A DNA stretch of 64,000 bases, from NCBI GenBank assembly GCA_039030395.1, contig JBCCEF010000015.1, forward strand, positions 47,018-111,017, written 5' to 3'. Positions within the stretch are counted from its first letter, which is position 1. The number at the start of each line of letters is the position of its first letter. Shown here in pieces: positions 21,314-46,185 of the stretch. Below the pieces are notes generated by a model. That model was not told the origin of the DNA, did no database searches, and saw nothing but the letters and a program-made list of their open reading frames with translations. Source of the DNA: Acidobacteriota bacterium. GTDB taxonomy: Bacteria > Acidobacteriota > Thermoanaerobaculia > Multivoradales > JBCCEF01. A program made the translations under genes and the position numbers.

Positions 21314-21636
21314 CGCGGGACGCGTCAGTACGCCGGCTGGCTGGTCCTCGGCGACCTTCCCTCACAAGTCACCCTCATTGGCGGCGGACTTCCAGTCCTG
21401 GAGATGAACGTAAGCCAACGGACGGGCAAGAGTGTACCCACTCCCCGAGCCTCCCTCCGCTCTGGGTAGCTCTTCCACCGTCAGGCCGTGCGGAGCCTGC
21501 CGAACATCCCGCCTATCGCTTCCAGACTTCTCGCAAGCCAAACGGAGATCCAGCCCCATCCAACCGGGGCGCGGTTATCCTTGCAAGATTCATCGCTACA
21601 TACCTATATCTTACTGAAACTTGCGGAGGGCGCTCA

Positions 21637-22599: not shown

Positions 22600-22679
22600 C
22601 TCGCCCCACCCATGGAGAGAAGGTCTCAACCAGATTGCTGTGAAAAACATAACTAGAGATTATCGAGCAACAGCAATCC

Positions 22680-23507: not shown

Positions 23508-23508
23508 A

Positions 23509-24474: not shown

Positions 24475-24475
24475 T

Positions 24476-28420: not shown

Positions 28421-29158
28421 ACTGATAATCTCTAGTTATCGGTGTGACGCGTGAGGAGCCCTATGCGCGCCGCACACTTATCGTCTTAATTGAATTGAAG
28501 AATTAGGAGCGCACTAAAGATTATGCAGCCTCGGTGGCCACCTCGTCAAGATACAGATTCTCAAAGCTCAGGACCTTCGCCAGGAATCACCTTCCCCGAT
28601 CGTTGAACACCGCCCTTCCGACGGCCTCAATCCCACTCGAGTGGATTGCCTTATATTGATAAACTACAGATATTCTGTGAAATATATTATATGGATCAAT
28701 CTGCGAGGAGATTGTCTTCCCACTGACTGGTACTCGGCGAACTGCTCGCATACCGCCCTCGCTCCGGCGAGTTCGCGCTCCTGGGGGCAATCGTCCACCT
28801 GAAGGCCGGAGGGGCAGCCGATGCATCCATCCCGGCGTCCCTGCGTCGTGACGCCGACCTGACCGTAACCCCTCCCCCCTGGACTTCTCGCATCCGCCCA
28901 TTCACTTCCGCTTCGACCCACGGCTCTCCCGCTCCGCTGCGCCTATCTATTTGAGTCCGCTGGGTTAGCAGGCTGAGCTGGGTGTTCGGCCGACAAAAAC
29001 TCGACGCCAGGATCCTCTACAGGCGCCTTGCCTCGGCTGACGAGATCTGCTAAGTTGCTGGGAGTAATTACTTTAAGTCTGCCTCGCACCGTTTCCTCGA
29101 AGTCGACGACGGTTTCCGAAGCAGCGGCTTGGCGGACCGCCTGAAAGAGAGGGACCCG

Positions 29159-31006
29159 ATGTCTCTTCGTTCGCCGCGCCTATGGATGGTCGCCGCCCTG
29201 GCCATGCCAGGGATCTTGATCGCCTTCGGCAGTCCGCAGGTGAGCGCCCGCGCCACCCCGCAGGAACCCAGCTCCGAGATTGAGTCCCCAACCGTAGGGG
29301 AGGTCCCGCCGGAATCCGGCGAGGCTGCCTCCTTGAGCGCCGATGAGGAGCACGCGGCGCTGTTCCTGGAGAACCGCTTTCCGGCAGCCACCACCTGCGC
29401 AACGTGCCACCCGGATCACTACCGCGAGTGGTCCGTTTCGCCACATGCCTATGCCCAGATGAGCCCGGTGTTCAACGCCATGCACGGCACCATCCTGAAG
29501 CTCACCAACGGCACCAACGGCGACTTCTGCATCCGCTGCCACACGCCGGTGGGCATGAATTTGGGCGAACCGGAGTTCATCAGCAACCTGGACCGCCACC
29601 CAACCTCCCGCGAGGGAGTGACCTGCGTGGTGTGCCATCGCATCAACCAGCCCTACGGCAAGCTCTCCGGCCGGCTGGCGATCGTCGAGGGCGATCTTTT
29701 CGAACCGGTCTACGGCCCGAGCGGCAACGACGAGCTCCAGCGGGTGATCGAGAGCGACCAGTTCCGGGTCAACACCGAACGGGGGCGCGCCGGGCGGGCG
29801 ATCCACACCCGGTCGGAGAAGTTCTTCCAAATTTCGACTTCCGGCCTATGCGCCACCTGCCACGATGTGAATCTGGTCAACGGATTCCGCCTGGAGGAGG
29901 CGTTCAGCGAATTCAAGACCTCGCCGGCGGCGGAGAACGGCACCTCCTGCCAGGACTGCCACATGAGCACCGTACCGGGAGTCGATTCGGGCTATGCCCA
30001 GGGACCGGCGGCGGTGGTTGGCGGCAAGGCGACGGCGATCCGCAAGCGGACCGATCATATGTTCATCGGCCCGGACTATTCGGTGGTCCACCCGGGGATC
30101 TTCCCGCACAACCCACAGGCTTCGGAGCTGGCGACGTTGCGCGAGTGGCTGACCTTCGATCACGAAGCCGGTTGGGGCACCGATGCCTTCGAAGCGGAAC
30201 TGCCGGAGGCCTACGAGTTCCCGGACCGCTGGCGGGCCGCCGACGACCGCTATGACGCCCGCGACATCTTGAACGACAACCAGGCGCTGTTGGCCGAGGC
30301 CCACGAACAACGTCGCGAGATCTTGCGCGCCGGCTACCAGCTCGGCAAGCTGGTGGTCGACAGGGCCGACGCGAAGGGCCTGGCTTTCCGGGTGGAAGTG
30401 AAGAACGGCACCGACGGCCACGGCGTGCCCACCGGATTCGACGCCGAACGACTGGTGTTCCTGCACACCACCGTGCGCGACGCCGACGGCCGGGTGGTCT
30501 TCGAGTCCGGCGACCTCGACCCCAACGGCGACGTGCGCGACAGTCACTCGCTGTACGTCCACAACGGAGAGCTGCCGCTCGATCGGCAGCTGTTCAGCCT
30601 GCAGTCGAAGTTCATCACCCGCATGGTGCGGGGGGGCGAACGGGAGCAGGTGCTGGCGGTCAACTATTCGCCGGATCCGCTGCCCTTCCTGCGCCCTTCC
30701 ACCTCCTCCACCATTCTCACCGGCCGGCCGCGGGGCGCCCGCAAGCACAAGCAGAACATCGAACCCTTGGGTAGCCGCTGGGCCGAGTACAAGGTGCCGG
30801 CGTCAGCCCTCGACGGTCGCGGTCCATACACCGTCCACGTCGAGATCAAGGCCGGCATGATCCCGGTGAATCTGATCCACGAGATCAAGGACGTGGGCTT
30901 CGACTACGGCTTGAGCGCCCGGGAAGTGGCCGAGCGGGTGGTCGACGGGCATCTCACCCTGTGGGAGCGCGAACACACCATCGAACTCGACCGACCGGGC
31001 GGCTGA
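29159..31006 (+). CDS. Secreted multiheme c-type cytochrome (5 CxxCH)
   Basis: Signal peptide MSLRSPRLWMVAALAMPGILIAFG. Heme motifs CATCH, CIRCH, CVVCH, CATCH, CQDCH. RBS agagaggga. Confidence 0.8.
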   Translation: MSLRSPRLWMVAALAMPGILIAFGSPQVSARATPQEPSSEIESPTVGEVPPESGEAASLSADEEHAALFLENRFPAATTCATCHPDHYREWSVSPHAYAQMSPVFNAMHGTILKLTNGTNGDFCIRCHTPVGMNLGEPEFISNLDRHPTSREGVTCVVCHRINQPYGKLSGRLAIVEGDLFEPVYGPSGNDELQRVIESDQFRVNTERGRAGRAIHTRSEKFFQISTSGLCATCHDVNLVNGFRLEEAFSEFKTSPAAENGTSCQDCHMSTVPGVDSGYAQGPAAVVGGKATAIRKRTDHMFIGPDYSVVHPGIFPHNPQASELATLREWLTFDHEAGWGTDAFEAELPEAYEFPDRWRAADDRYDARDILNDNQALLAEAHEQRREILRAGYQLGKLVVDRADAKGLAFRVEVKNGTDGHGVPTGFDAERLVFLHTTVRDADGRVVFESGDLDPNGDVRDSHSLYVHNGELPLDRQLFSLQSKFITRMVRGGEREQVLAVNYSPDPLPFLRPSTSSTILTGRPRGARKHKQNIEPLGSRWAEYKVPASALDGRGPYTVHVEIKAGMIPVNLIHEIKDVGFDYGLSAREVAERVVDGHLTLWEREHTIELDRPGG

Positions 31007-32607
31007 CGCACTTGAAAGCGCTGCGCCCCCTGTTTCTCCCAGCGCTTGCGGCGCTGCTCCTTGCGGTCCCCATGGCGGCGGACGGCGTGGGTGCGGCCGG
31101 CGGCGAGAGGAAAACCGATCCCCCGAAGGAAGACTCCGCCGCGGAGCATCCCTCCGAGATGGAAGGCAGCGAGGAAGGCAGCCATGGGGAAGACGCCCAT
31201 GGCGAGGACGGGCATGGTGCCGAAGCGCACGGAGAAGATGCCCATCACGGCAAGAAAGGCGGACACCACAGTAGTCGGCTGACCGACGAGCGCATTCCTC
31301 TGCGGGTCGAGAATGTGCCGGAGCGGCCCAAACCGCTGCTCGAACTGGGCGAGCCGTTCCTCGGCTCCGGCACCTTGAAGCCGGGCTTCCGCTTGCCCAC
31401 CGGCGCCGTTTGGCAGCCTTCGCTGCTGGTGTTCGGAACCTTGCGCACCGCCGCCCAGACCTTCGAGAACCCGGCCGGTCGGGTGAGCGAGGTCGCCACC
31501 CGGCTCGATCTCTTCGCCAACCTCCAGCTCTCCGGCACGGAGCGGCTGGTGGTGGGCTTCCGGCCTTTGGACCAGGACGGCCGATTCACCTCCTACGTCT
31601 TCGAATCGGATCTGCCGGGGGTCGACGAGAGCGACTTCTCGGACGAATTCAACGGCGAGATCACCAGCTTGTTCTTCGAGGGCGACTTCGGCGAGATCTT
31701 TCCCAACCTGTCGCGCGACGACTTTTCGCCGACGGACGTCGGCTTCTCCGTCGGCCGCCAGCCGCTGCTGTTCCAGGAGGGGCTGTTGATCAACGACGCC
31801 ATCGACGGCGTGGGCGTCACCCGCAACACCCTGCAGCCGGCCAGGTCCTCGAACTTCCGGGCGACGCTTTTCTGGGGCTGGAACGATGTCGGGCGCCCTG
31901 GGGTGGGCGGCAATCCGGAGGACGACGACGCGCAGCTCGTCGCCCTGCTGACCTCCGCCGACCTACGCCGTTCGACCATCGACGCGGATCTCGCCTGGGT
32001 GCTGTCGGACACCCGGGGCAACGGGGCTCTGCGCTCCGGCGGCGATCTGATCGCCGGCGGCGTCAGCTTCACCCAGCGCATCGGCCTGTTCAACACGTCT
32101 TTTCGCCTCCTCGGGTCCCTCGCCGACGAAGAGACGGTGAGCGCCGGTGAGGGCTTGCTGCTGTTCTCGGAGGTTTCCCGCACGCCCCATCACACCCACG
32201 ACCTTTTGTACTTCAACACCTTTCTGGCGGTGGACCGCTTCACCTCCGCCGCCCGCGGGCCGGCCACCGGCGGGCCGTTGGGGCGCGCCGGCATTAACTT
32301 CGCCGCCGTCGGCCTGGGGCGCTACGGCGCCGCCCTATCGAGCCAGGCCCAGGACGTGGCCGGCGGCGCCGTGGGCTATCAACGCTTCTTCGACCACACC
32401 CGCAAGCAGCTCATCGTCGAGGTCGGGGCACGAGTGGGGACGGATTCCTCCATCGCCGATGCGATCGCCGCCACCGGCCGCTACCAAGCCGCCGTCGGTC
32501 GCCGTTTCGTCCTGCGGACGGAGGCTTTCGCCGGCCTGCGCCGCGACCCCGGCGGCTCCGACGAGGAACTCTTCGGCGGTCGCTTCGAGGTGCTTCTCAA
32601 GTTTTGA
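30961..32607 (+). CDS. Predicted outer-membrane beta-barrel (porin-like) protein with N-terminal His/acidic repeat region
   Basis: Signal-like LKALRPLFLPALAALLLAVPMAADG. HGED-type His-rich repeats. Amphipathic alternating pattern, and it ends in ...RFEVLLKF (a terminal aromatic residue is typical of outer-membrane barrels). Start ambiguous (GTG 30961 overlapping the upstream gene, or TTG 31012). Confidence 0.55.
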   Translation: MGARTHHRTRPTGRLTHLKALRPLFLPALAALLLAVPMAADGVGAAGGERKTDPPKEDSAAEHPSEMEGSEEGSHGEDAHGEDGHGAEAHGEDAHHGKKGGHHSSRLTDERIPLRVENVPERPKPLLELGEPFLGSGTLKPGFRLPTGAVWQPSLLVFGTLRTAAQTFENPAGRVSEVATRLDLFANLQLSGTERLVVGFRPLDQDGRFTSYVFESDLPGVDESDFSDEFNGEITSLFFEGDFGEIFPNLSRDDFSPTDVGFSVGRQPLLFQEGLLINDAIDGVGVTRNTLQPARSSNFRATLFWGWNDVGRPGVGGNPEDDDAQLVALLTSADLRRSTIDADLAWVLSDTRGNGALRSGGDLIAGGVSFTQRIGLFNTSFRLLGSLADEETVSAGEGLLLFSEVSRTPHHTHDLLYFNTFLAVDRFTSAARGPATGGPLGRAGINFAAVGLGRYGAALSSQAQDVAGGAVGYQRFFDHTRKQLIVEVGARVGTDSSIADAIAATGRYQAAVGRRFVLRTEAFAGLRRDPGGSDEELFGGRFEVLLKF

Positions 32608-34736
32608 TCAGCCAGGCGCTCGTGCCCCCTTCAGCCCGCCGGAAATCCCACCGGCGGGGATCTCCGTGGTTGCGAGGTGCAGGCGTTTTAGTCGCCCTTG
32701 GGACGCCCATTGCGCTGTGGGGCCAGGTCACCGGCGACGAGGAGTTCACCCGCGAACCGCCGGAGAAGATCGTCACCGCCGAGGCCTGCGGCGAATGCCA
32801 CATCTCGGAGTTCGAGGTGTGGAAGAAGACCCCCCACGCCACCGGCTTCAAGACCCTGCACCGCACCGAAGCCGCCGAGGCGATCGCCCAGAAGATGGGA
32901 TTCCGACTGATGAAGCGCGACAGCCTGTGCCTCCAGTGCCACTACACGCCAGAGGTGCGGAACGATCAACTGCGGGCCGTCTCCGGAGTGTCCTGTGAGT
33001 CCTGCCACGGCGCCGGCCGCGACTGGATTGACCTCCACAACGACTACGGTTCGGGGTTCGACCACGCCACGGAACCGGCCGAACACCGCCTAGAGCGCAT
33101 CGCCGCCAGCCGCGCCGCCGGCATGCGCCGACCGTCGGATCTCTACGGCGTCGCAACGAGCTGCATGGGCTGCCACACGGTGCCGAACGAAAAGCTGGTG
33201 AACATCGGCGGCCACACCACCGGCAGCTCCGGCTTTGAGCTGGTTGAGTGGTCCCAGGGCGACATCCGCCACAATTTCTTGCAGTCCTTCTTGACTGGCG
33301 ACGGCACCGAGAACCGCGAGCACACGGCGCCGGAGAAGCGGCCGATGTATGTCCTAGGCCGGCTGGTCGAACTCGAATACGCACTGCGCGCCGCAGCGGA
33401 AGCGTCGGAGCCCGGCACCTACGCCCGCGCCGTCGGCCGACGGGTCAAGACCTCGACTCTCGAGCTGCGGAAGATCGGCCAGATCGCCGAGATCCCGGAG
33501 ATCGGCGCGGCGGTGGCGGTGGTGCGCGGAGTCCAGGTAGTGCCCGGCAACGGCACGGCGCTGCGGGCGGCGGCGGACGAACTGGGCGCCATCGCCCGGC
33601 GCTTCGCCGACGACCGCGAGCCGGCGGTCCAGTTGGCGAGTCTCGATCCGCTGATCCGGGGCGAGGCGATCGCGCTTCCGGAGCCCGAGGTGCAAGTGGC
33701 GGCGGCGACCACGTCGGGGGAAGGCGATCCCGGCACGGTGGCCACGGCGACTTCGGACCCGGGCGATGGCTCCGGCGGCGCTACATCCACAACCGCCACC
33801 GCCAACACCGTCACCGTCAACCCCGGCCGGCCGGTGGTGGGCGAGGCGCGGCGTACCATCCGCCCGTCGGCGCGCCACCGCACCCTCGGCCCCGGCGCTT
33901 GTAGCGGCTGCCACGGCGAGGCCAACGACTGGTGGGCCGGCGACGCCCACTACCGCTCGGCCGAACCTTTCTTCAGCCGCTCGCCGGAGGCGGTACGCAT
34001 CGCCACCCTCTACGGTGTTCCCTTGAACCGTATGGTCACCGGCACCGCCCTGTGCATGAACTGTCACGGCACGGTGGTCTCCGGCAGCGAGAGTTTCGAG
34101 GTGTTCGACGGAGCGAGCTGCGAGAGCTGCCATGGACCGGCGGCAGACTACATCGAAGCCCACAAGGAGGGCGACAAGGCGCTCGGCACCGCGCGGCCCG
34201 GCTACCGCAACGCACTGCGGCTCGGGATGACGGAGCTCCAGAACCTCACCACCCGCGCTGAAACGTGTACGAGCTGCCACTACATCACCGATCGCAGGCT
34301 GCTCTCGTCGGGCCATCCTTCCGGCGAGGGTTTCGACTACGTCGCCGCCATGAACAAGATTCGACACTGGCCGGACCCCGCCGGCGCCGGCACCATCCGT
34401 CCGGCCTTCAACAGCGTCTTGGCGAAGCGCGGGCCGGTGCCGGAGGTGCCCTTGGGCGAGCTGCCGGAAACGGTGCTGGCGGAGGCCACCGCCGCGGCCG
34501 CTTCCACCGTCAACAGCCGCCCCACCGGTGGCAGCTGGAACCGCCCGCGGCCGGCCGGCCCTGCCGCCCGCGGCGCCACCGTTGTCCCCCCGATCACCAG
34601 CCGGAGCCGTGCCCCCGGTACTCCCGTGGAACTGCCGCCCTTCCCCACCATCGATGCGTCGACGACGATCGAAGACACTCTGCTGCTGATCAAGCAGCGG
34701 CTGGAGCTGGTCTACGACGCGGTGCGGCCCCAATAA
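32604..34736 (+). CDS. Multiheme c-type cytochrome (8 CxxCH) with internal Thr/Ser/Gly-rich linker
   Basis: CGECH, CLQCH, CESCH, CMGCH, CSGCH, CMNCH, CESCH, CTSCH. Low-complexity linker at ~33700-33830. TTG start overlapping the upstream stop (TTGA); start uncertain. Confidence 0.8.
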   Translation: MISQALVPPSARRKSHRRGSPWLRGAGVLVALGTPIALWGQVTGDEEFTREPPEKIVTAEACGECHISEFEVWKKTPHATGFKTLHRTEAAEAIAQKMGFRLMKRDSLCLQCHYTPEVRNDQLRAVSGVSCESCHGAGRDWIDLHNDYGSGFDHATEPAEHRLERIAASRAAGMRRPSDLYGVATSCMGCHTVPNEKLVNIGGHTTGSSGFELVEWSQGDIRHNFLQSFLTGDGTENREHTAPEKRPMYVLGRLVELEYALRAAAEASEPGTYARAVGRRVKTSTLELRKIGQIAEIPEIGAAVAVVRGVQVVPGNGTALRAAADELGAIARRFADDREPAVQLASLDPLIRGEAIALPEPEVQVAAATTSGEGDPGTVATATSDPGDGSGGATSTTATANTVTVNPGRPVVGEARRTIRPSARHRTLGPGACSGCHGEANDWWAGDAHYRSAEPFFSRSPEAVRIATLYGVPLNRMVTGTALCMNCHGTVVSGSESFEVFDGASCESCHGPAADYIEAHKEGDKALGTARPGYRNALRLGMTELQNLTTRAETCTSCHYITDRRLLSSGHPSGEGFDYVAAMNKIRHWPDPAGAGTIRPAFNSVLAKRGPVPEVPLGELPETVLAEATAAAASTVNSRPTGGSWNRPRPAGPAARGATVVPPITSRSRAPGTPVELPPFPTIDASTTIEDTLLLIKQRLELVYDAVRPQ

Positions 34737-34796: not shown

Positions 34797-36479
34797 ATGA
34801 GCGACGCCGACCGCACCCCCGATCTGCCCCCGGGCGACTTCGGCAAGACCATGCTCAAGCGCATGGAGCAGTACCGCGACCGCTGGACCTCGCGCGGCGC
34901 CAACACCGGTCTCGAGTCGCTGTCGGACAAGCTCACGGCGAGAGAACTGCGGCAACTCGAACTCTTCGCCGACTACGACGACCGTTTCCTCGAGCGCATC
35001 AGCCCGGATATCTCGATCGCCCAGTGGAAGGCGGGTTCGGTGCTGTTCGAGGCCGGCGCCTACATCGACCTGGCGTTCTTCATCCTCGACGGCCGGGTGG
35101 AGGTAGCGGTCGAGGAGCTGGTCGCCGGCGCCTCCCAATCGATGCCGATCTTCGACCTGTCGCGGACGGTGATCGGCGATTTGCCGAGCCCGCTGCCGCC
35201 GGCCGACGGCACCACCGTCTTCCGACCGGCGACGGAAGACCGCGAGCCCGGCACCTCGGCACCCACCAAGAGCGAGATCACGTTCCTCGCCAGCATGGAC
35301 TTCGATCTGCCCACCGGCACCGGCGCCGGCCTCGGGACGGGAGAACTCTTCGGGGAGATCGGCGCGATGAGCGGCTGGCCGCAGTCGGTCACCGCCCGCT
35401 GCGCCAGCGATTGTCGATTGATCCAGATCCGAGTGCCGGCGCTGCGTCTGATGAAGCGCAAGTCGAAGGCCCTGGCGGCGCGCCTGGACCGCCTGTACCG
35501 GGAGCGCTCGCTGTCGTCGCAACTGGAGACCACACCGCTCTTTCGCCACTGCAGCCGGAGCTTTCTCCAGCAGCTAGAGCAGAGCGTCGAGCTGGTCTCC
35601 TGCAACCCGGACGAGGTGGTCGTCCGACAGGGCCAGGGGGTGGATGCACTCTTCCTGGTGCGCTCCGGGTTCCTGCGCCTGTCGCAGCGCCTGGGGGAAG
35701 GGGACATCGTGGTCTCCTATCTCTCGAAGGGCATGACCCTGGGCGAGGTGGAACTGCTGACGGAGGGCATCGAAGGCTGGGAGGTGACGGCCTCGTCCGT
35801 CGAGTTTGCGGAGCTGGTGAAGATCCCCCGTGCCACCTTCGACGAGTTGCTCGCGGCCCATCCGGGATTGCAGGACGATCTCTGGCGCAGCGCCACGGAA
35901 CGGATCAAAGAAGCCGGACGGGCGCGCCGGCACATCGGCCGGTCTTCTTTTACCGAGGCGGCGCTGGACAGCGGCCTGGTGCAGGGTTCGAGCATCCTGG
36001 TGATCGATCTCGACACCTGCACCCGCTGCGACGACTGCGTGCGCGCCTGCGCCGACACCCACGGCGGCCGGCCGCGCTTCGTGCGCGAAGGCAGCAAGCA
36101 GAAGAATCTGCTGATCGCCCGCTCCTGCTATCACTGCCGCGACCCGGTGTGCCTGGTGGGCTGTCCCACCGGCGCCATCCACCGGGCCGGAGTGGGCGAC
36201 GTGGTGGCGATCGGCGACGAGCTGTGCATCGGCTGCTCGACCTGTGCCAACAACTGCCCCTACGACGCCATCGTGATGCACGAGACCGGCGAGACCTGGC
36301 CGGAAGACATGGTGCCCACCGGCCTGCGCGGCCAGCCACGGGACGTAGCGAGCAAGTGCGACCTGTGCGTCGACACCGGCCACGACCCGGCCTGCGTCAG
36401 CAATTGCCCCCAGGGCTGCGCCTTCCGGGTGGGTTCCGTGGCGGAGTTGGAAACGCTGCTGGCGGAGGATGATCGGTGA
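34797..36479 (+). CDS. Tandem cyclic-nucleotide-binding (CAP-like) domains fused to a C-terminal multi-cluster 4Fe-4S ferredoxin domain
   Basis: Two cNMP-binding folds (ELFGEIGAMSG... and GMTLGEVELLTEG...). Cys clusters CTRCDDCVRAC, CYHCRDPVCLVGCP, CIGCSTCANNCP, CDLCVDTGHDPACVSNCP. Confidence 0.75.
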   Translation: MSDADRTPDLPPGDFGKTMLKRMEQYRDRWTSRGANTGLESLSDKLTARELRQLELFADYDDRFLERISPDISIAQWKAGSVLFEAGAYIDLAFFILDGRVEVAVEELVAGASQSMPIFDLSRTVIGDLPSPLPPADGTTVFRPATEDREPGTSAPTKSEITFLASMDFDLPTGTGAGLGTGELFGEIGAMSGWPQSVTARCASDCRLIQIRVPALRLMKRKSKALAARLDRLYRERSLSSQLETTPLFRHCSRSFLQQLEQSVELVSCNPDEVVVRQGQGVDALFLVRSGFLRLSQRLGEGDIVVSYLSKGMTLGEVELLTEGIEGWEVTASSVEFAELVKIPRATFDELLAAHPGLQDDLWRSATERIKEAGRARRHIGRSSFTEAALDSGLVQGSSILVIDLDTCTRCDDCVRACADTHGGRPRFVREGSKQKNLLIARSCYHCRDPVCLVGCPTGAIHRAGVGDVVAIGDELCIGCSTCANNCPYDAIVMHETGETWPEDMVPTGLRGQPRDVASKCDLCVDTGHDPACVSNCPQGCAFRVGSVAELETLLAEDDR

Positions 36480-37324
36480 CCGCCGCCAACCGCAGTTCCC
36501 TGGCGCCCAGGCGCGCCGCCGGCCGTCGCTGGCGTCGCGCGTTCGCGGTGGTGGCGGGACTGTGCCTGCTGGTCTTCGCCGTCAACGCTCAGTTCTTCGA
36601 GGTGAACCCCGGCAACCCTTGGGGCCTGGGCTACGGCATCGCCGCGGCGCTGCTGCTGCTGGTGACGGCGCTCTATTCGCTCCGCCGGCGCTTCCCCCGC
36701 TGGGCCACCCGCCGGCGCCTGGGGAGCGCCCGCACCTGGCTCTACCTCCACCTCTACGGCGGCGCCCTGTTCGCTTTGTTGATGCTGATGCACAGCGGTT
36801 TTTCAGTACCCACCGGAGCGGTGACCTGGTGGCTCTGGCTGCTCAGCCTGTGGACCGTGGCGAGCGGCCTCGCCGGCCTCGCCCTCCAGCAGTGGATCCC
36901 CCGGGTGCTCGGCTCGTCCCTCGAAGTGGAGGCGATCTACGAGCGCATTCCCGAGTTGGTCCACGAGCTGAGCGCCGAGGCCGACGCCCTCGCCACCACC
37001 TGTGTGGAACCGGTGCAAACCCTCTACAGCCGCCGCCTAGCGCCGGCCCTGGCGTCGCCGCAGCCGCGTTTGCGCTTCTACTTCGACGCCACCGGCGGCC
37101 GCGACACGGCGCTCAAGGAGGTCGAAGTGCTGCACCCGCTATTGCCGCCGGAAGAGCAGGCGAAGCTGGCCGGGCTGTCCAAGATGTACCGCACCAAAAC
37201 CCAGCTCGACGCCCAGTTCACCCTGCAGCGGGGCCTGCGGTTGTGGCTGTGGGCGCACGTGCCGGTGTCGACGGCGGTGCTGGTGCTGCTGGCGGTGCAC
37301 CTGTTCGCTGTTTGGTACTACTGA
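36476..37324 (+). CDS. Integral membrane protein (4-5 TM) with conserved intramembrane His pairs; candidate b-type heme / ferric-reductase-like subunit
   Basis: GTGA start overlap with the upstream gene. TM helices contain HLYGGALFALLMLMH and WAHVPVSTAVLVLLAVHLF. The function is inference only. Confidence 0.55.
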   Translation: MTAANRSSLAPRRAAGRRWRRAFAVVAGLCLLVFAVNAQFFEVNPGNPWGLGYGIAAALLLLVTALYSLRRRFPRWATRRRLGSARTWLYLHLYGGALFALLMLMHSGFSVPTGAVTWWLWLLSLWTVASGLAGLALQQWIPRVLGSSLEVEAIYERIPELVHELSAEADALATTCVEPVQTLYSRRLAPALASPQPRLRFYFDATGGRDTALKEVEVLHPLLPPEEQAKLAGLSKMYRTKTQLDAQFTLQRGLRLWLWAHVPVSTAVLVLLAVHLFAVWYY

Positions 37325-37349
37325 TCGCTGATCTCGTGGGGAGAGGGAT

Positions 37350-38957
37350 TTGACGAGGAAGGACAGAACGGGCAAAGGCACTTTGGGGGACTCCGGTCTA
37401 CCGGTTGCCAGCAAGTATGTTCAGCCGCCGCATCGGCGTGAACTCCTGTGGGTTGGAGCGGCGGCTCTCGTGATCGTGGCGCTGTTGGCCGCCTGGAGCC
37501 TGCTCCGCCGCGACGGTCGGATGGTTTCGAACGGTCCGCTGTCATCGAACCACGCCAATCTAGAGAACAACTGCGCCGCCTGCCACTCGGGCTTCGCTCC
37601 GGTGAGCAACGAGGCCTGCTCCACCTGCCACGAGAAGCACGGCGACGAACTTGGCGTCTACACCTTTGCCTCGCACTATCTCTACCGGTCCGACGACTTC
37701 CAGCGGGTGGTGCCCTCGCCGGACGAAGAGCCCTGCATCGCCTGCCACACGGAGCACCAGGGCCGCACCGCCGAGATCACCCGGGTGGCGGACGCCCGGT
37801 GCCAAGCCTGCCACGAGTTCTCCCCGTTCAGTGACCACCATCCGGAATTCGCCTTCGCCCAAGCGACGGAGCCGGACTCGAACCCCGGCGACCGTGCCCT
37901 CGCCTTCGCGCACATCCAGCACGTCAAAGAGCTGATTATCCGGCAGAGCCTCGACGCCTCGAATCCCGACGAGGTGGAGCGAACCTGCCTCGCCTGCCAC
38001 AACCCCGAACCGGCCGGCCGTTCCTTCCAGCCGATCGACTTCGACCGCCACTGCGACGCCTGCCACCTCGCCGCCACCGACCGCACGCCGCCGCTGCCGG
38101 TGGCCGGCGAATCCCCTGGGGTGCAAACGCTGCAGGCGATCCAGCTCGCCGGTTTGCCGGGCAGCCGTTGGGCGGACTACGTCAACCCCGGTGAGTTCCG
38201 GCAGCAGGGCGAGCGCATCGTCAAGAGCCCGCTCTACCACCGCGACCCGTGGGTGCTCCACAACCTGCGGCGGCTGCGCCAGCAACTGCTGGGCGACGGC
38301 GGCCTGGCGGACTTGTTGACCGCCTCACCGGACGTGCGGCCGGCCGAGCTGCGCTCGCTCTACGAAGAGGCCATCGCCACCCTCGAAGCCCAGGCCCTCG
38401 ACCTGCGCTCGATTCCCGACCGGGCGGTGCAGCGGGAACTCGAACAGATCGACACGGTCCTCGCCGCCCTCAAGCGACGGTTGGAGGATCCCCACGCGCC
38501 GCTCGACGAAACCGGCTTCCTCCTCGCCCTGACCCCGCCGGCAGATCCGGAATCCGCCGATGCGGAACGCATCCGCACCGTCGCCGAGGCGCTCACCGAA
38601 CCGTGCCGCAATTGCCACACGGTGGAAGACGCCACCATCGTGCGGGTGGAAAACGATCTCGGTACCCTCAAGCGGGCGGAGTTCAACCACCGTGCCCACA
38701 TGCTGCAGCGCGGCTGCCTCGACTGCCACACGGAAATCCCCTTCGCCGAGTTCCTGAATTCGGATGGAGCAGTGGTGCCCGCCGAACTGGACCGGGCGGA
38801 GATCCAGAACCTGCCCAAGATCGCCGTCTGTGGCGAGTGCCACAACGAGAACCTCGCCTCCCAGACCTGTGTCACCTGTCATCTCTTCCACCCGGACACC
38901 GACCGCCGCTCGGAGCTGATCCAATTCGTCAACCCGGAGACCGCCAATGCAGGCTAG
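37350..38957 (+). CDS. Membrane-anchored decaheme c-type cytochrome (10 CxxCH)
   Basis: N-terminal TM anchor (LLWVGAAALVIVALLAAWSLL) then CAACH, CSTCH, CIACH, CQACH, CLACH, CDACH, CRNCH, CLDCH, CGECH, CVTCH. TTG start preceded by ggagaggga. Confidence 0.8.
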   Translation: MTRKDRTGKGTLGDSGLPVASKYVQPPHRRELLWVGAAALVIVALLAAWSLLRRDGRMVSNGPLSSNHANLENNCAACHSGFAPVSNEACSTCHEKHGDELGVYTFASHYLYRSDDFQRVVPSPDEEPCIACHTEHQGRTAEITRVADARCQACHEFSPFSDHHPEFAFAQATEPDSNPGDRALAFAHIQHVKELIIRQSLDASNPDEVERTCLACHNPEPAGRSFQPIDFDRHCDACHLAATDRTPPLPVAGESPGVQTLQAIQLAGLPGSRWADYVNPGEFRQQGERIVKSPLYHRDPWVLHNLRRLRQQLLGDGGLADLLTASPDVRPAELRSLYEEAIATLEAQALDLRSIPDRAVQRELEQIDTVLAALKRRLEDPHAPLDETGFLLALTPPADPESADAERIRTVAEALTEPCRNCHTVEDATIVRVENDLGTLKRAEFNHRAHMLQRGCLDCHTEIPFAEFLNSDGAVVPAELDRAEIQNLPKIAVCGECHNENLASQTCVTCHLFHPDTDRRSELIQFVNPETANAG

Positions 38958-39795
38958 GCCCGCCCGCCTGCTCTGTCAGCGAGGAGCTGCCGGTGGCACT
39001 CGCTTCGACTTCACCGGCCAGGCGACCCTCGGTCGCGCCCCGGAGTGCACGGTGGTGCTGGAGGCCAGCGAGATCTCCAGCCGTCATGCTCGTATCTCCT
39101 GGGACGAGGAAGCCGGGCGCTACCTGCTCGAAGATCTCGGCAGTCTCAACGGCACCGAACTCGACGGCGAACCGGTGAGCGGCGGCGAGACCCTATCCCG
39201 CATGCACGTGATCACCCTAGGCGGGGCCGTCGAGGTCATCTACCAGGGTCCGGAGCTGGTGGCCGCCGCGCCGCCGACGGCTCCCTCAGAGGACTCAGGG
39301 CCGCTCGGCGACACTACCGACAGCCACACGGTGATCAGCGCTGAGCCGCTGGTGCTGCCGGGAAGCTTCGACGGCGACGACACCGGAATGGGCACCCGCA
39401 TCGAAAGCCAGATGGCGCCGCTGCCCTCGGCCTTCGGCACCGCACCACCGATCGAGCACGCGGTACCGGAGCCGACCTGGCGGCTGCGCATCCCCGAGCA
39501 AGGTCCGCAGGACGGTTTCGTCCTCCAGCCGGGAGCGAACCGGGTCGGGCGGCTGCCGAGCTGCGAGATCATGATCGACGGCGCCACCATCTCCCGGCTG
39601 CACGCGGTACTCACAGTGCATCGCGGACGCCTGCGGGTGCGCGACGACGGCAGCCGCAACGGCACTTGGCTCGACGACCAGAGAGTGACCGGGGACGTCG
39701 AAGTCTCCGCCGGTGCCGCCCTGCGGTTCGGCGAGGTCTCGGCGATTCCCCTGGTGGACCTTCCCAATGATTCCGGCCCAACGAATTCGGAGTAG
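38947..39795 (+). CDS. Tandem FHA-domain protein
   Basis: Two FHA cores: FTGQATLGRAPECTVVLEASEISSRHARISWDEEAGRYLLEDLGSLNGTELDGEPV and ANRVGRLPSCEIMIDGATISRLHAVLTVHRGRLRVRDDGSRNGTWLDDQRV. Confidence 0.7.
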   Translation: MQARPARLLCQRGAAGGTRFDFTGQATLGRAPECTVVLEASEISSRHARISWDEEAGRYLLEDLGSLNGTELDGEPVSGGETLSRMHVITLGGAVEVIYQGPELVAAAPPTAPSEDSGPLGDTTDSHTVISAEPLVLPGSFDGDDTGMGTRIESQMAPLPSAFGTAPPIEHAVPEPTWRLRIPEQGPQDGFVLQPGANRVGRLPSCEIMIDGATISRLHAVLTVHRGRLRVRDDGSRNGTWLDDQRVTGDVEVSAGAALRFGEVSAIPLVDLPNDSGPTNSE

Positions 39796-39802
39796 ATCCG
39801 CA

Positions 39803-42079
39803 ATGAACCCGTCCCCCGAAGTGCTCGATCTGCTGGTAGTGGGTGGCGGCCCCGGCGGCACCGCCGCCGCCTTCCGCGCCGCTGAACACGGCCTCAAGGT
39901 GGTGGTCGTCGACTACGACGATCTGATGAAACGCATCCGCGATTACTCGAAGGACAAGTTGATCCTGCCGGGCTTCGGCGGCGGCGACACGATGGCCTTT
40001 CCCAAGGGCGGCCGGCTGATCTCGTCCCTCGCCTTCGAGCCGATCGACAAAGACGAGATGTGTGCCCGCTGGAAGGGCCTCTACCAGGAGCACGGCGTGA
40101 CCGCCCGCACCGGCGTCGAACTGACCGGCCTCGAACGGCGCGACGACGGCAGTTGGCTGGCGCAGGGGTGGGACCATCGCGGTCGCTGCGACGCCACCTT
40201 CACCGCCCGGAATGTCGTTCTCGCCCTCGGTCGTGGGGTACCGCGGCGCTTCGACATTCCCGGCAACACCGACGGCATCGCCTTCCGCCTGGACGACCCC
40301 AACGACTTCGTGGACCGCTCCGCCTGCGTGATCGGCGGCGGCACCTCGGCGGCGGAGGCGGTGATCGCCCTGTCCAACGCCAAGGCGGCGGCCGGCGACC
40401 CGACGGGGGTGTACTGGTCCTACCGCGGCGACCGGATGCCGCGGGTGTCCAAAGCTCTGGCGGAGGTGTTCTTCTCGGCCTACATCGGCAACGGCAACAT
40501 CCGCTACTTCCCGCAGAGCGAGCCGGCCGGGGTGGTGACCGCCGCCGACCGCCGGGAGTACCTGGCGATCCGCACCGACCGGCGGGTGATCGACGGCCGG
40601 CCCAACGAGACCACCCACCTCGAATTCCCCAAGGAGTCCTGCGTCGCCTGCATCGGCGAGGACATTCCGGAACCGCTGCTCGCAGGCATCGGCTGCCCGT
40701 TGATCTGTGGCGGACCGAAGGGGCGGAAAAGAGTGGTCGTCAACCGCTATCTCGAAACCCGTTTGTCCGGCGTCTACGTGGTCGGCGACTTGCTCAGCCA
40801 AGCCTACTTCGAGACCGATGACTTCGACGCCGATCCCGCCGGCTTCCGGGAGGTCAAACACCGCGGCAACATCAAGTCCGCCCTGCGCGACGGCGTGCTG
40901 GTGGCGGACGTGCTGCGGGCGAGGCTCGCCGGCGAGGATCCCGCTGGGATCGCCGTCGAAGATGCGGCGCCGGCGGCCGGCGGCGAGGCGGCGAGAATCG
41001 CCGTCGCCGTCGCCAGCCAAAGGGATAGCCTGGATGACGGCCCGCCGGAAGCCAGTCTCGGGGCGGACCGCGCCGCCGCCGAGGGAGGCGCCATGCTGAT
41101 TCGGATCCTGCCCGGCGGCGTCGAAGGGGAGGAGTTTCCGCTGCCGGAAGGCCAGGTGACCACCCTCGGCCGCGCCGGCTGTGACGCCAACTTCCCGGAC
41201 GACTCCGCCCTGTCCCCGCAGCACGCCTCGATCGTCCACGGCGAGAATGGCTTCTCCCTGCGCGACGACGGCAGCGCCACCGGCCTGTTCCTCGAGCTCC
41301 AGGCGGCGGACAAGCGAGACGTCCGCCCCGGCGACCTGATCCGCTGCGGCCAGCAATTCCTGCGCCTCGACGATGTCGAGGGCGAAGGCGGCGAGGGGAC
41401 GGGGCCCGGCTTCACCCACTTCGACGCCCGCGGTCAGGTGGTCGGTCGCCACCGGCTGGCGGAAGGCACCTCCATCATCGGCCGGCGGGCGCCGGACGTC
41501 ACCCTCGACCGCAAGGACCGCACCCTGTCGCGCCGGCAGCTCGCCCTCACGGTCACCGGCGGCCGCATCCAGATCAAGGACCTGAAGAGCGCCAACGGCT
41601 CCTTCCTGCGAGTGCGCGACGCGGTAGCGATCGACCACGGCGACCGCTTCCGCGCCGGGCAGCAGCGTTTCCTGGTCAGCCTGCGGGACGACCCGGCGCT
41701 GTCCGCCGGAGTCGATCCGGCGAATTCGACCCATGCCTCGCTGCGGCCGGCCGAGGTGGCCGCTGTCGCACCGGCCGCAGGCGCCGGGAACGGCCCGTCG
41801 GTCACCTTTGAAGGCCTCGGCAAGACCATCGCCGTGGCGGCCGGCCAGACCCTCTGCGAGGCAGCCGAAGCGGCCGGCATCCCGATCGTCGCCGAGTGCC
41901 ACTCGGGGATCTGCGGCAGTGACCCGATTCGCATCGTCACCGGCCGGGAGAACCTCGACGCGGAACCGGACGACCAGGAGATCGAGACCCTCGAAGAACT
42001 GTGCGAAGTCGAGCCCGGCCCTTGCCGGCTGGCCTGCAAACTGCGGGTGACGGGACCGGTCACCGTCAAGCTCCTCTAG
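39803..42079 (+). CDS. Fusion protein: FAD/NAD(P)-binding pyridine-nucleotide-disulfide-type oxidoreductase + two FHA domains + C-terminal 2Fe-2S ferredoxin-like domain
   Basis: Dinucleotide fold LLVVGGGPGGTAAAFRAAEHGLKVVVVD and a second CVIGGGTSAAEAV motif. FHA cores (TTLGRAGCDANFPDDSALSPQHASIVHGENGFSLRDDGSATGLFL and TSIIGRRAPDVTLDRKDRTLSRRQLALTVTGGRIQIKDLKSANGSFL). C-terminal Cys-rich ...AECHSGICGSD...PCRLAC. The ferredoxin assignment is tentative. Confidence 0.7.
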   Translation: MNPSPEVLDLLVVGGGPGGTAAAFRAAEHGLKVVVVDYDDLMKRIRDYSKDKLILPGFGGGDTMAFPKGGRLISSLAFEPIDKDEMCARWKGLYQEHGVTARTGVELTGLERRDDGSWLAQGWDHRGRCDATFTARNVVLALGRGVPRRFDIPGNTDGIAFRLDDPNDFVDRSACVIGGGTSAAEAVIALSNAKAAAGDPTGVYWSYRGDRMPRVSKALAEVFFSAYIGNGNIRYFPQSEPAGVVTAADRREYLAIRTDRRVIDGRPNETTHLEFPKESCVACIGEDIPEPLLAGIGCPLICGGPKGRKRVVVNRYLETRLSGVYVVGDLLSQAYFETDDFDADPAGFREVKHRGNIKSALRDGVLVADVLRARLAGEDPAGIAVEDAAPAAGGEAARIAVAVASQRDSLDDGPPEASLGADRAAAEGGAMLIRILPGGVEGEEFPLPEGQVTTLGRAGCDANFPDDSALSPQHASIVHGENGFSLRDDGSATGLFLELQAADKRDVRPGDLIRCGQQFLRLDDVEGEGGEGTGPGFTHFDARGQVVGRHRLAEGTSIIGRRAPDVTLDRKDRTLSRRQLALTVTGGRIQIKDLKSANGSFLRVRDAVAIDHGDRFRAGQQRFLVSLRDDPALSAGVDPANSTHASLRPAEVAAVAPAAGAGNGPSVTFEGLGKTIAVAAGQTLCEAAEAAGIPIVAECHSGICGSDPIRIVTGRENLDAEPDDQEIETLEELCEVEPGPCRLACKLRVTGPVTVKLL

Positions 42080-42292: not shown

Positions 42293-43752
42293 ATGAGTTC
42301 CGAACACACCCTTCTCGTCGTCGACGACGAGGAGATGAACCGCGATCTCCTGTCGCGCCGACTGGAGCGCAAAGGCTACCGGGTGGCGGTCGCCAAGGGC
42401 GGGCAGGAAGCCCTCGACGCGGTCGCCGCACAGGACATCGACCTCATCCTGCTCGACATTATGATGCCGGGCATCGACGGTATCGAGGTGCTCAAGAGAC
42501 TGCGCCAGAGCCATTCCCAGACACAGTTGCCGATCATCATGGCGACCGCCAAGGGCGACAGCGAAGACGTCGTGCAGGCGCTCGAACTGGGAGCCAACGA
42601 CTACGTGGTCAAGCCGCTCGACTTCCCCATCGTGCTGGCTCGGGTGCAGGCTCAACTCCGCACCAAGGACAGCGCCTCCCAGGGGACCCCGGCGAGCGAC
42701 GAGCCGACCGCCGGCGAGATCGAACCGGGGGTGGTAGTGGCCGGAAAGTACCGGCTGGAGTCGCTCCTCGGCTCCGGCACCTTCGGCAGCGTGTTCCGCG
42801 CCCGGCACCTCGATCTCGATACCGACGTGGCCTTGAAGGTGTTGCGCACCGGCCTCGCATCGGACACCGAATCCCTCCGCCGCTTCCGCCAGGAGGGGGC
42901 CGCCGCCTGCCGCCTCAAGCACCCCAACGCGGTGGCGGTGCACGATTTCGCCGTCACCGAAACGGGGGTCGCTTACCTGGTGATGGAGCTGCTCGAAGGC
43001 TGTTCCCTCGACCGTGAGATCGGCGCCGGCCGAGCCCTATCGCCGCGCCGCTGCGCCGAGCTGATGGTGCCGATCTGCCACGCCCTGGCGGAAGCCCACG
43101 AAGCCGGTATGGTGCACCGCGATATCAAGCCCGCCAACATCTTTTTGCACCTTGAGAAGGGCCGTGAGGTGGTCAAGGTGCTGGACTTCGGAATCGCCAA
43201 GCTGATGGGCGAAACGGTGACCTCGCAGCAACTCACCCAGGACGGCATGTTGCTCGGCACCCCCACCTACATGGCCCCGGAGCGTCTCGAAAATCAGGAC
43301 TACGACGGCCGATCGGACGTCTACAGCCTGGGCGTCATGTTGTTCCAGATGCTCACCGGGAAGCTGCCCTTCGTCGCCAAGAAGGGCGACTTGATGGCGC
43401 TGATGATGCTCCACATCAAGGCACCGATTCCGTCCATCCGGGAGCACCGACCGGACCTCTCCGAAGAGCTGGCCGAGCTAGTGTCGCGCAGCCTTGCCAA
43501 GGCTGCCGCCGAGCGGCCGGACGCCGCCGGCCTGGCCCGCGAACTAGCGAGCGCCGTCGGCATCGTACAGAGCCCTCCGGAGCCCGAGGCACCGCGCCGC
43601 AAAGCCACCGGCAAGTCGCCCCTGGGAGAGCCGCAGAACACCGACGAGTTGCTCGCCGACCTGGCGCCCACGGTGGCCATCGACCAACCGCCCCGAGGGG
43701 GTCGAGGGGGTTGGTTCCGTCGCTTCTTCTCTTCCCGGGGATCGAAAGACTG

Positions 43753-43753
<1 letters not shown>
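42293..43753 (+). CDS. Response-regulator receiver domain fused to a Hanks-type Ser/Thr protein kinase
   Basis: REC (LLVVDDEEMNRDLL...DLILLDIMMPGIDG...YVVKPLD) then kinase subdomains (GSGTFGSVFRA, ALKVL, HRDIKPANIFL, DFGIAK, APE). Confidence 0.85.

Positions 43754-46185
<2,432 letters not shown>

Follow-up and report, generated by a model that had tools for sequence, protein, structure and literature searches.

A 64,000-nucleotide stretch of DNA from an Acidobacteriota bacterium (assembly GCA_039030395.1, contig JBCCEF010000015.1, positions 47,018 to 111,017 of the forward strand; here called the window) carries at 34797-36479 a gene for a protein that joins two cyclic-nucleotide-binding (CNB) domains to a ferredoxin module with four cysteine motifs. 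Judged by sequence identity and gene order, this gene is an orthologue of ptdE, a component of the ptdABCDEFG operon (bioRxiv 10.1101/2023.11.21.568154). We propose, with moderate confidence, that PtdE is the cytoplasmic four-[4Fe-4S] wire of the Ptd porin-cytochrome system, leading from an NAD(P)H dehydrogenase to the haems b of the membrane protein PtdF and onward to periplasmic haems c, and that its CNB tandem is a regulatory or docking module. The probable task of the Ptd cluster as a whole is to move electrons out of the cytoplasm and across both membranes.

The ptdE Gene and Its Published Relatives

The open reading frame (ORF) is open from 34797 to 36479 on the plus strand and encodes 560 amino acids, with a GC content at third codon positions (GC3) of 0.89, similar to that of the adjoining genes. 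Its product is 100% identical to an NCBI protein from an Acidobacteriota metagenome-assembled genome (MAG), annotated as "cyclic nucleotide-binding domain-containing protein" (P0001). Inspection by eye of the N-terminus revealed no signal peptide or twin-arginine translocation (Tat) motif. An octahaem cytochrome c gene (32604-34736) lies upstream, and a membrane protein gene (36476-37324) followed by a decahaem cytochrome c gene (37350-38957) lies downstream, which bears out the placement between cytochrome genes given in an initial annotation of this DNA. The overlap with the downstream gene described there is exact as well, since the GTG start of ptdF (36476-36478) overlaps the TGA stop of ptdE (36477-36479) to give GTGA at 36476-36479, with a GGAGGA Shine-Dalgarno sequence at 36464-36469. 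The gene and its parts are:

34797..36479, plus strand: ptdE orthologue, encoding tandem CNB domains and a putative four-cluster ferredoxin module, cytoplasmic (ORF, Pfam, synteny)
34932..35504, plus strand: CNB-A, approximately residues 46-236 (Pfam and PDB alignments)
35115-35312, plus strand: poorly conserved insertion in CNB-A, residues 107-172 (conservation profile, AlphaFold2)
35349..35396, plus strand: phosphate-binding cassette of CNB-A, FGEIGAMSGWPQSVTA, with Gln196 instead of the canonical Arg (alignment to MlotiK1)
35520..35921, plus strand: CNB-B, approximately residues 242-375, with the degenerate cassette LGEVELLTEGIEGWEVTA (alignment to MsPat and SthK)
35991..36431, plus strand: putative four-cluster [4Fe-4S] ferredoxin module, residues 399-545, with 16 invariant Cys (Pfam, NCBIfam, PDB alignments, conservation)
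36464..36479, plus strand: GGAGGA Shine-Dalgarno sequence and GTGA start/stop overlap of ptdE and ptdF (read from the sequence)

The preprint that named the operon describes PtdA as a pentahaem protein with a beta-sandwich, PtdB as a porin, PtdC as an FAD/NAD(P)-binding oxidoreductase, PtdD as a tetrahaem protein, PtdE as a CNB and 4Fe-4S protein, PtdF as a ferric-reductase-like membrane protein, and PtdG as a decahaem protein (bioRxiv 10.1101/2023.11.21.568154). Its Table S7 includes contig QQVD01000056 of Acidobacteriota LB_AC_1, on which PtdA, B, D, E, F, and G correspond to REK03318 down to REK03313 (PtdE being REK03315) and PtdC to REK03311, while REK03312 is skipped. The same contig is one of the loci compared here (L028). 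Its PtdE is 62% identical to the window protein over residues 14-555 and its neighbours are collinear, and this combination of a listed contig, sequence identity, and shared gene order identifies the window gene as the PtdE orthologue. The published cluster has the same PtdE architecture and the same set of neighbours as the window. For the window itself the result is therefore modest, in that the gene is an ordinary orthologue of a named component. A full-text literature search found the arrangement described only in the ptd preprint; no CNB, FHA, or Fe-S component is mentioned in a 2026 peat preprint that deals with cytochrome clusters of Acidobacteriota.

The Iron-Sulfur Module

The motifs of the C-terminal module indicate that it binds four [4Fe-4S] clusters. 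A Pfam scan of PtdE matched Fer4_7, Fer4_9, and Fer4_11 (E 3e-10 to 3e-8), and the cysteines fall into four motifs: C408-x2-C411-x2-C414-x3-C418, C444-x2-C447-x4-C452-x3-C456-P, C477-x2-C480-x2-C483-x3-C487-P, and C521-x2-C524-x8-C533-x3-C537-P. All 16 are invariant, both in 55 homologues drawn from across phyla and in 40 database homologues. The initial annotation had spoken of four clusters of the CxxCxxCxxxCP type; four cysteine motifs are present, although only one follows that pattern literally. Searches of NCBIfam and of PDB sequences group residues ~400-545 with the four-cluster ferredoxins (PF13247 clan) DmsB, HydN, NrfC, HycB3/HycB4, PsrB, and FdnH, the best PDB matches being HycB4/HycB3 of 7qv7, PsrB (2vpw_B), and FdnH (1kqf_B). 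The alignment with HycB3 spans residues 401-540 and the four-motif alignment with four-cluster ferredoxins residues 401-542, so that the earlier assignment of the cysteines to ferredoxin-type clusters holds. PtdE scores below every NCBIfam equivalog cut-off (DmsB, HydN, NrfC, DsrO, HybA, and others), the best being DmsB with 60.2 against 214.1 bits, and domain scans found no molybdopterin oxidoreductase or hydrogenase catalytic domain in the cluster or its scanned neighbours.

The comparison with characterised proteins suggests what such a module might do. PtdE shares four aligned Cys motifs with HycB3/HycB4 of the hydrogen-dependent CO2 reductase (7qv7), HydN, PsrB/NrfC, DmsB, FdnH, and NarH, and by analogy may share their role as an intramolecular electron wire. 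HycB, HydN, and NarH are cytoplasmic, as is PtdE, and NarH and FdnH are partnered by a dihaem b membrane subunit, as PtdE would be by PtdF. The NarH/NarI and FdnH/FdnI pairs, each consisting of an Fe-S protein and a dihaem cytochrome b, provide, along with the Tmc/Hmc/Dsr complexes, the closest functional likeness to PtdE and PtdF. PtdE differs in its added sensor tandem, 390 residues of CNB domains that the four-cluster ferredoxin subunits lack, and in having no Tat signal.

Distribution and Conserved Gene Order

A word-indexed protein search with PtdE returned 1,959 matches, the best 120 of which were 61-100% identical, and an exhaustive search of representatives at 50% identity returned 698 clusters at E ≤ 1e-30. 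Scanning one genome per species recovered 59 PtdE loci (41-72% identity) in Acidobacteriota (Thermoanaerobaculia, Holophagales, Vicinamibacteria, and Acanthopleuribacteraceae), Ignavibacteria, Rhodothermales, Chitinophagales/Cytophagia, KSB1, Zixibacteriota, Calditrichota, Myxococcota, Nitrospirota, and others. Cultured carriers of the Ptd system include Sulfidibacter corallicola, Roseibium aggregatum, and Tistlia consotensis. The published survey lists the cluster for abundant marine lineages, e.g., Alphaproteobacteria and Nitrospinota, and reports that ptd genes are transcribed in an oxygen-deficient zone (bioRxiv 10.1101/2023.11.21.568154).

Synteny was scored by tblastn of the window's neighbour proteins against these loci, counting only loci with enough flanking sequence. 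The recurrent order is octahaem cytochrome, PtdE, membrane protein, decahaem cytochrome, FHA protein, and FAD/FHA/2Fe-2S oxidoreductase. It is shared by about ten phyla, with PtdE 50-72% identical; synteny was seen in Acidobacteriota, Ignavibacteria, Rhodothermales, Chitinophagales, KSB1, Zixibacteria, Calditrichota, Myxococcota, and Nitrospirota. A multihaem cytochrome gene lies directly upstream of ptdE in 46 of 47 loci and the membrane protein gene ptdF directly downstream in 51 of 53; the decahaem gene ptdG was found in 46 of 50 loci, the downstream gene with two FHA domains in 39 of 47, and the oxidoreductase PtdC in 30 of 39. Upstream there is usually a pentahaem gene, together with one whose product has a signal peptide and ends in ...LLKF, the signature of an outer-membrane barrel. 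The initial annotation had regarded a CNB-ferredoxin protein as unusual within a cytochrome operon; these counts make its placement the hallmark of a cluster already described as ptdABCDEFG. A different arrangement occurs in two Cytophagia MAGs (L027 1023-2609 and L033 1034-2635), in which a homologue of PtdE (56% identity) has a cytochrome gene before it and, according to the ORF list, no PtdF or PtdG after it; a 332-amino-acid ORF and a Ser/Thr kinase follow instead.

The Membrane Partner PtdF

The gene that overlaps the end of ptdE is:

36476..37324, plus strand: ptdF, membrane protein with five transmembrane segments, putative dihaem cytochrome b (invariant His, AlphaFold2)

NCBI annotates the same 282-amino-acid product (P0121), and its homologues all carry the label "hypothetical". 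No Pfam family reaches threshold in PtdF, the only trace being a faint DUF4405 match (E 0.007). An alignment of 32 homologues, extending down to 25% identity, contains 12 invariant positions, four of which are the histidines H92, H106, H261, and H275. The pairs H92/H106 and H261/H275 have the same H-x13-H spacing and lie in two transmembrane helices. The AlphaFold2 model is all-helical, with a predicted local distance difference test (pLDDT) score of 91.6, and its structural neighbours are dihaem b-type proteins, the nearest solved analogues being CybB, FdnI, and cytochrome b. These features fit a dihaem cytochrome b in which PtdF would hold two bis-His haems b. The positive-inside rule would place the Arg-rich N-terminus and the loop at residues 70-85 in the cytoplasm, and this orientation would put the H92/H261 haem on the cytoplasmic side and the H106/H275 haem on the periplasmic side. 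A 294-amino-acid ATG frame at 36469-37353, which overlaps nearly all of ptdF, was considered and rejected, for it has no family match and shows no sign of conservation, and it is the frame starting with GTG at 36476 that is conserved and annotated; it is most likely a high-GC artefact.

The association of PtdE with PtdF extends to gene fusion. In an 828-amino-acid representative (P0237) PtdE is fused in frame to PtdF, with residues 571-828 being 50% identical to the window PtdF (258 amino acids, E 4e-72), and two further representatives (P0240 and P0247) have the length expected for such a fusion. The fusion argues for direct contact between the two proteins and would set the PtdF N-terminus on the cytoplasmic side.

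A Paralogous Family Fed by NuoEF-Like Proteins

A second family combines the same core with a different dehydrogenase. In a sample of 80 metagenome loci (L060-L139, from JGI and other metagenome contigs), the paralogous protein has an N-terminal NuoG-like 2Fe-2S/4Fe-4S part ahead of a core of two CNB domains and a four-cluster ferredoxin, this core being 33-37% identical to that of PtdE. A fused NuoE/NuoF-like protein, with a thioredoxin-like 2Fe-2S domain, a Nuo51 FMN domain, and NADH_4Fe-4S, is a neighbour in 74 of the 80 loci. A PtdF homologue (hhalign probability 99.9%, E 1.7e-36) is a neighbour in 78, and a membrane-anchored multihaem cytochrome related to PtdG (E 8e-15) in 66. One such locus (L082 6133-12625) shows the order NuoE/NuoF-like FMN dehydrogenase, NuoG-N-terminal-like protein with both CNB domains and ferredoxin, PtdF homologue, and anchored multihaem cytochrome, and the four PtdF histidines are kept there. 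The input of this family would be the NuoE/NuoF-like FMN dehydrogenase, whereas that of the Ptd system would be PtdC, and the scan of conserved neighbours picked up no FHA gene. The occurrence of two different NAD(P)H dehydrogenases with the same CNB-ferredoxin/PtdF/PtdG core is the strongest argument that this core connects pyridine nucleotides in the cytoplasm with haems c in the periplasm. The cluster is apparently undescribed in the literature. Upstream in 48 of the 80 loci is a 513-amino-acid protein without a Pfam match.

A four-cluster ferredoxin joined to a dihaem cytochrome b is the classic quinone-coupled respiratory architecture, seen in NarGHI and FdnGHI. PtdE and PtdF could likewise be quinone-coupled in the manner of NarHI and FdnHI, with PtdG acting separately as a quinol dehydrogenase and no direct wire between haem b and haem c. 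CybB, FdnI, and cytochrome b all have quinone sites, and PtdG shows a likeness, limited to its N-terminal anchor, to membrane-anchored multihaem quinol dehydrogenases. We nevertheless consider quinone coupling unlikely: the adjacency of PtdF and PtdG is kept in both the Ptd and the NuoEF-fed families, arguing that they form one working unit, and Pfam finds no NapC/NirT match in PtdG.

The CNB Domains and Their Ligand Cassettes

The two CAP/CRP-type folds that had been recognised in the N-terminal half of PtdE are well supported. Pfam matches cNMP_binding (PF00027) in two stretches (E 7.7e-24), the AlphaFold2 cores have pLDDT values of about 90 (89-95 for the CNB-A core and 84-96 for CNB-B), and Foldseek matches residues ~45-375 to the tandem CNB-A/B of the regulatory subunits of protein kinase A (PKA-R) and of the cyclic-GMP-dependent kinase PKG (E ~1e-15). 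These best structural matches cover both CNB domains of PtdE, although at 14-18% identity only. PtdE differs from PKA-R and PKG in the large insertion of its CNB-A, predicted to be disordered (pLDDT ~30), and its output would be an Fe-S module where that of PKA-R is a kinase-inhibitor sequence.

Residue-level alignment to structures with bound cyclic nucleotide monophosphate (cNMP) pairs the CNB-A cassette FGEIGAMSGWPQSVTA with FGEMALISGEPRSAT of MlotiK1, placing Gln196 at the Arg position, and pairs LGEVELLTEGIEGWEVTA of CNB-B with IGEIALLRDAPRTATV of MsPat, placing Glu326 there. The Gly-Glu of the cassette, which contacts the ribose 2'-OH, is kept in both domains, while the Arg that pairs with the phosphate is absent from both. 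Across the 55 homologues, G186, E187, P195, and Q196 of CNB-A are present in all, and G189, G193, and W194 in 54. In CNB-B, G316 is present in all 55 and E317 in 52, and the Arg position is occupied by G, E, D, A, or P. This pattern points to a CNB-A pocket, with its invariant Gln196, suited to a non-canonical ligand or a protein contact.

The wider superfamily suggests how such a pocket may have arisen. More distant members (33-37% identity) have the canonical PRSAT in their CNB-A and, in many cases, RTA in their CNB-B; in the NuoEF-fed loci PRSAT occurs in 79 of 80 and RTA in at least 52 of 80. The closest sister groups of the Ptd clade have His or Val at the Arg position. Taken together, these cassettes suggest that the Ptd clade derives from genuine cNMP-type sensors whose specificity was changed or lost. 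CNB domains without the cassette Arg, as in KCNH channels and kinetoplastid PKA-R, do not use cAMP. The latter, cAMP-independent and crystallised with guanosine or inosine according to the PDB titles (6flo, 6hyq, and 6hyi), has a cassette without Arg as PtdE does, and may by analogy be a precedent for a ligand switch of this kind. Sensing through an Fe-S cluster, as in FNR, or a haem, as in CooA, was considered for the CNB domains and rejected: the conservation profile of residues 1-390 contains no invariant Cys or His, which makes either cofactor unlikely.

The tandem might instead bind no ligand at all and serve as a scaffold on which PtdC, the FHA protein, or PtdF would dock, with the cassette turned into a protein-protein interface. 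CNB-homology domains of the KCNH type work without a free ligand. The degeneracy of CNB-B would suit a scaffold, as would the short conserved motifs (PIFDL and ITFLxxMDFDLP) on either side of the disordered loop in CNB-A, and the four FHA domains encoded alongside, together with the fusion of FHA domains to the CNB-FeS core in P0262 and P0284. Such a role is rather unlikely, however, given that Gly-Glu, Pro, and the hydrogen-bonding Gln of CNB-A are conserved at near 100% across phyla, the pattern of a small-ligand pocket and not of a flat interface. An invariant phospho-acceptor Thr that could serve as a docking site for FHA domains was also sought in the disordered loop, and no Thr there is invariant across the 55 homologues; T124 (PIFDLSRT) is invariant in 40 closer homologues but only moderately conserved in the 55-sequence set.

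The initial annotation had pictured a redox protein gated by cAMP or cGMP. A redox subunit switched allosterically by either nucleotide, bound canonically in one or both CNB domains, would agree with two domains that lie well above the Pfam threshold in a PKA-R/PKG-like tandem fold, with the retained Gly-Glu, with an invariant Arg212 near the cassette, and with fully canonical paralogues of the same architecture, from which the ancestor was probably a real cNMP sensor. Mutation of the cassette Arg in CAP, PKA-R, HCN2, and MlotiK1 strongly weakens cNMP binding. In the Ptd clade this Arg is Gln in every one of the 55 CNB-A sequences and is variable in CNB-B (Glu in the window protein), and no class III nucleotide cyclase domain was found among the scanned window ORFs. 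One window ORF (10651-11439) matches PF04199, 'Putative cyclase', which we take to be a kynurenine-formamidase family and presumably neither a nucleotide cyclase nor a source of cNMP. Canonical gating is thus quite improbable in this clade, while the idea does fit the paralogous family, whose cassettes, in contrast to those of the Ptd clade, are canonical. The related claim of an electron-transfer subunit whose regulatory module is coupled to the downstream membrane protein is upheld by synteny, by the PtdE-PtdF fusions, and by the four invariant histidines of PtdF, in all but its choice of cAMP or cGMP as the regulator.

A CRP/FNR-type transcription factor sensing redox through its Fe-S clusters can be dismissed as next to impossible, for the partial NCBIfam CRP match covers CNB-B only and is weak (31.7 bits against a cut-off of 266), Pfam and NCBIfam scans find no helix-turn-helix, a ferredoxin module with four cluster motifs makes up the C-terminal half, and the gene is in strict synteny with, and sometimes fused to, that of a membrane cytochrome.

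Other Genes of the Cluster

The remaining genes of the cluster and the adjoining kinase genes are:

29129..31006, plus strand: PtdA-like pentahaem c-type cytochrome with signal peptide (5 CxxCH; Pfam Cytochrome_C554, NapC/NirT-like)
30961..32607, plus strand: PtdB-like putative outer-membrane beta-barrel (porin) (signal peptide, His-rich stretch, C-terminal ...LLKF, synteny with PtdA)
32604..34736, plus strand: PtdD-like periplasmic octahaem cytochrome with two c554-like tetrahaem halves (8 CxxCH; two Cytochrome_C554 stretches)
37350..38957, plus strand: PtdG-like decahaem cytochrome c with N-terminal membrane anchor (10 CxxCH, N-terminal hydrophobic helix)
38947..39795, plus strand: protein with two FHA domains (Pfam FHA in two stretches, E 6e-33)
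39803..42079, plus strand: PtdC-like FAD/NAD(P)H oxidoreductase with two FHA domains and a C-terminal 2Fe-2S domain (Pfam Pyr_redox_2, FHA twice, Fer2)
42293..43753, plus strand: receiver-domain Ser/Thr protein kinase (Pfam Response_reg and Pkinase)
43711..46185, plus strand: hybrid histidine kinase with HAMP, HisKA, HATPase_c, and two receiver domains (Pfam)

The cytochromes of the window cluster thus contain 5, 8, and 10 CxxCH motifs. The PtdA-like protein is 66-80% identical in many syntenic loci. The PtdB-like protein has no Pfam match, and its porin label follows Table S7 of the ptd preprint for the contig shared with that study (L028). PtdD is an octahaem protein in the window, a doubled tetrahaem, whereas the published PtdD is a tetrahaem protein. 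The window PtdC follows PtdG and an extra FHA gene, and carries two FHA domains and a 2Fe-2S domain, unlike the published description. Its likely start is the ATG at 39803, the ORF opening at 39713, and its conserved features are the dinucleotide (FAD/NAD(P)H) motifs GGGPGG and GGGTSA and four Cys in the Fer2 part.

The gene with two FHA domains that lies between PtdG and PtdC is a conserved eighth component, left unnamed in the ptd preprint, and sits where Table S7 skips an accession (REK03312 in L028 and QTD51418 in Sulfidibacter corallicola). FHA domains are also found fused to the core itself: two representatives (P0262 and P0284) have one or two of them at the N-terminus of a CNB-CNB-ferredoxin protein, so that FHA domains accompany this core repeatedly and not in the window alone. 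Comparable N-terminal extensions occur in P0260 and P0275, in which Pfam finds no FHA domain. The FHA domains probably have the receiver-domain Ser/Thr kinase as their partner. In the closest relative (L001) this kinase is syntenic and 69% identical, and weaker kinase matches (31-43%) lie near many other loci. Membership of the hybrid histidine kinase in the Ptd system is uncertain; it is syntenic in L001 only, at 55% identity. The two kinase genes (42293-46185) overlap by 43 nucleotides.

Directly upstream of the ptd-like cluster is a low-GC island (21220-28420; GC 0.53-0.60 against 0.64-0.71 elsewhere) that contains a phage-type integrase gene (21220-22599, plus strand) and a gene for a 1314-amino-acid STAND-type protein with CHAT, NB-ARC, and WD40 domains (24476-28420, minus strand). 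It looks like a horizontally acquired element.

A Proposed Route for Electrons and Its Control

As we envisage the Ptd system, electrons from NAD(P)H would enter through the FAD and 2Fe-2S centre of PtdC, pass to the four 4Fe-4S clusters of PtdE, and reach the haems b of PtdF. The ferredoxin module of PtdE, docked on PtdF, would act as a wire of ~40 Å, and PtdF would stack its two bis-His haems b across the membrane within five helices. From there the anchored decahaem PtdG, the octahaem PtdD, and the pentahaem PtdA, with the outer-membrane barrel PtdB, would complete the path. This would be a NOX-like exit route, independent of quinones, with the direction of flow inferred. Outward flow would, as in NOX, dissipate membrane potential and not build it, which suggests that the system may serve as an outlet for reductant or in respiration on extracellular acceptors. 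Electrons might also flow inward from an external donor. The CNB tandem, in its PKA-R/PKG-like arrangement, would be the regulatory or docking module, and together with the FHA/kinase layer might control the coupling of the dehydrogenase to the wire. Ser/Thr phosphorylation is a likely further level of control in view of the four FHA domains in the cluster and the adjacent receiver-kinase.

Known systems resemble this proposal in part. TmcABCD, HmcEF, and DsrMK of sulfate reducers likewise bridge periplasmic cytochromes c to cytoplasmic Fe-S proteins, by way of a b-type cytochrome. In the Tmc, Hmc, and Dsr complexes and in NOX/STEAP, the cytoplasmic partner is an HdrD-like CCG protein or a fused FNR-like domain, whereas the Ptd partner would be a four-cluster ferredoxin; PtdF has five helices and matches no Pfam family above threshold, and Ptd adds regulatory CNB and FHA domains.

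Several points weigh against our proposal. The preprint that named the operon states that its function "remains completely unknown" and counts two 4Fe-4S clusters in PtdE, not four (bioRxiv 10.1101/2023.11.21.568154). AlphaFold2 modelled the Fe-S module poorly (pLDDT 40-68), giving it no geometry that could be used, and the count of four clusters comes from sequence motifs. Direct electron transfer from PtdC to PtdE is inferred only from co-occurrence, and PtdC is not near PtdE in 9 of the 39 loci. The PtdE-PtdF fusions come from metagenomic gene calls, in which a one-base error at the 4-nucleotide overlap could produce them, and PtdF may have a quinone site. Loss of the cassette Arg predicts, without proving, loss of cNMP binding, and the invariant Arg212, shortly after the CNB-A cassette, could compensate for it.

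Implications for Extracellular Electron Transfer

Four points are absent from the ptd preprint: the loss of the cassette Arg, the putative dihaem character of PtdF, the control layer of FHA domains and kinase, and the NuoEF-fed paralogues. The new elements here are the four-cluster count, the invariant Gln cassette, the assignment of PtdF as a putative dihaem protein, the PtdE-PtdF fusions, the conserved FHA gene, and a NuoEF-fed sister family that keeps canonical cNMP cassettes. A broader and tentative reading, which we hold to be possible but not probable, is that the CNB-CNB-ferredoxin/PtdF/PtdG trio is a widespread and unrecognised type of bacterial respiratory module, a quinone-independent NOX-like wire that accepts interchangeable NAD(P)H dehydrogenases, delivers their electrons directly to multihaem cytochromes of the periplasm and from there to porin-cytochrome conduits, and is gated post-translationally by a second messenger. 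The signal would be cNMP in the NuoEF-fed family, and in the Ptd clade another ligand at the Gln196 pocket together with phosphorylation read by FHA domains.

Electron exit to outer-membrane conduits has been characterised in few model organisms, where it proceeds via quinol dehydrogenases such as CymA, ImcH, and CbcL. To our knowledge, direct post-translational control of electron flow to such conduits is essentially undescribed. If PtdE, PtdF, and PtdG do form a regulated wire from NAD(P)H to cytochromes, they would open a new way into extracellular electron transfer and give cells a means to shed reductant on demand.

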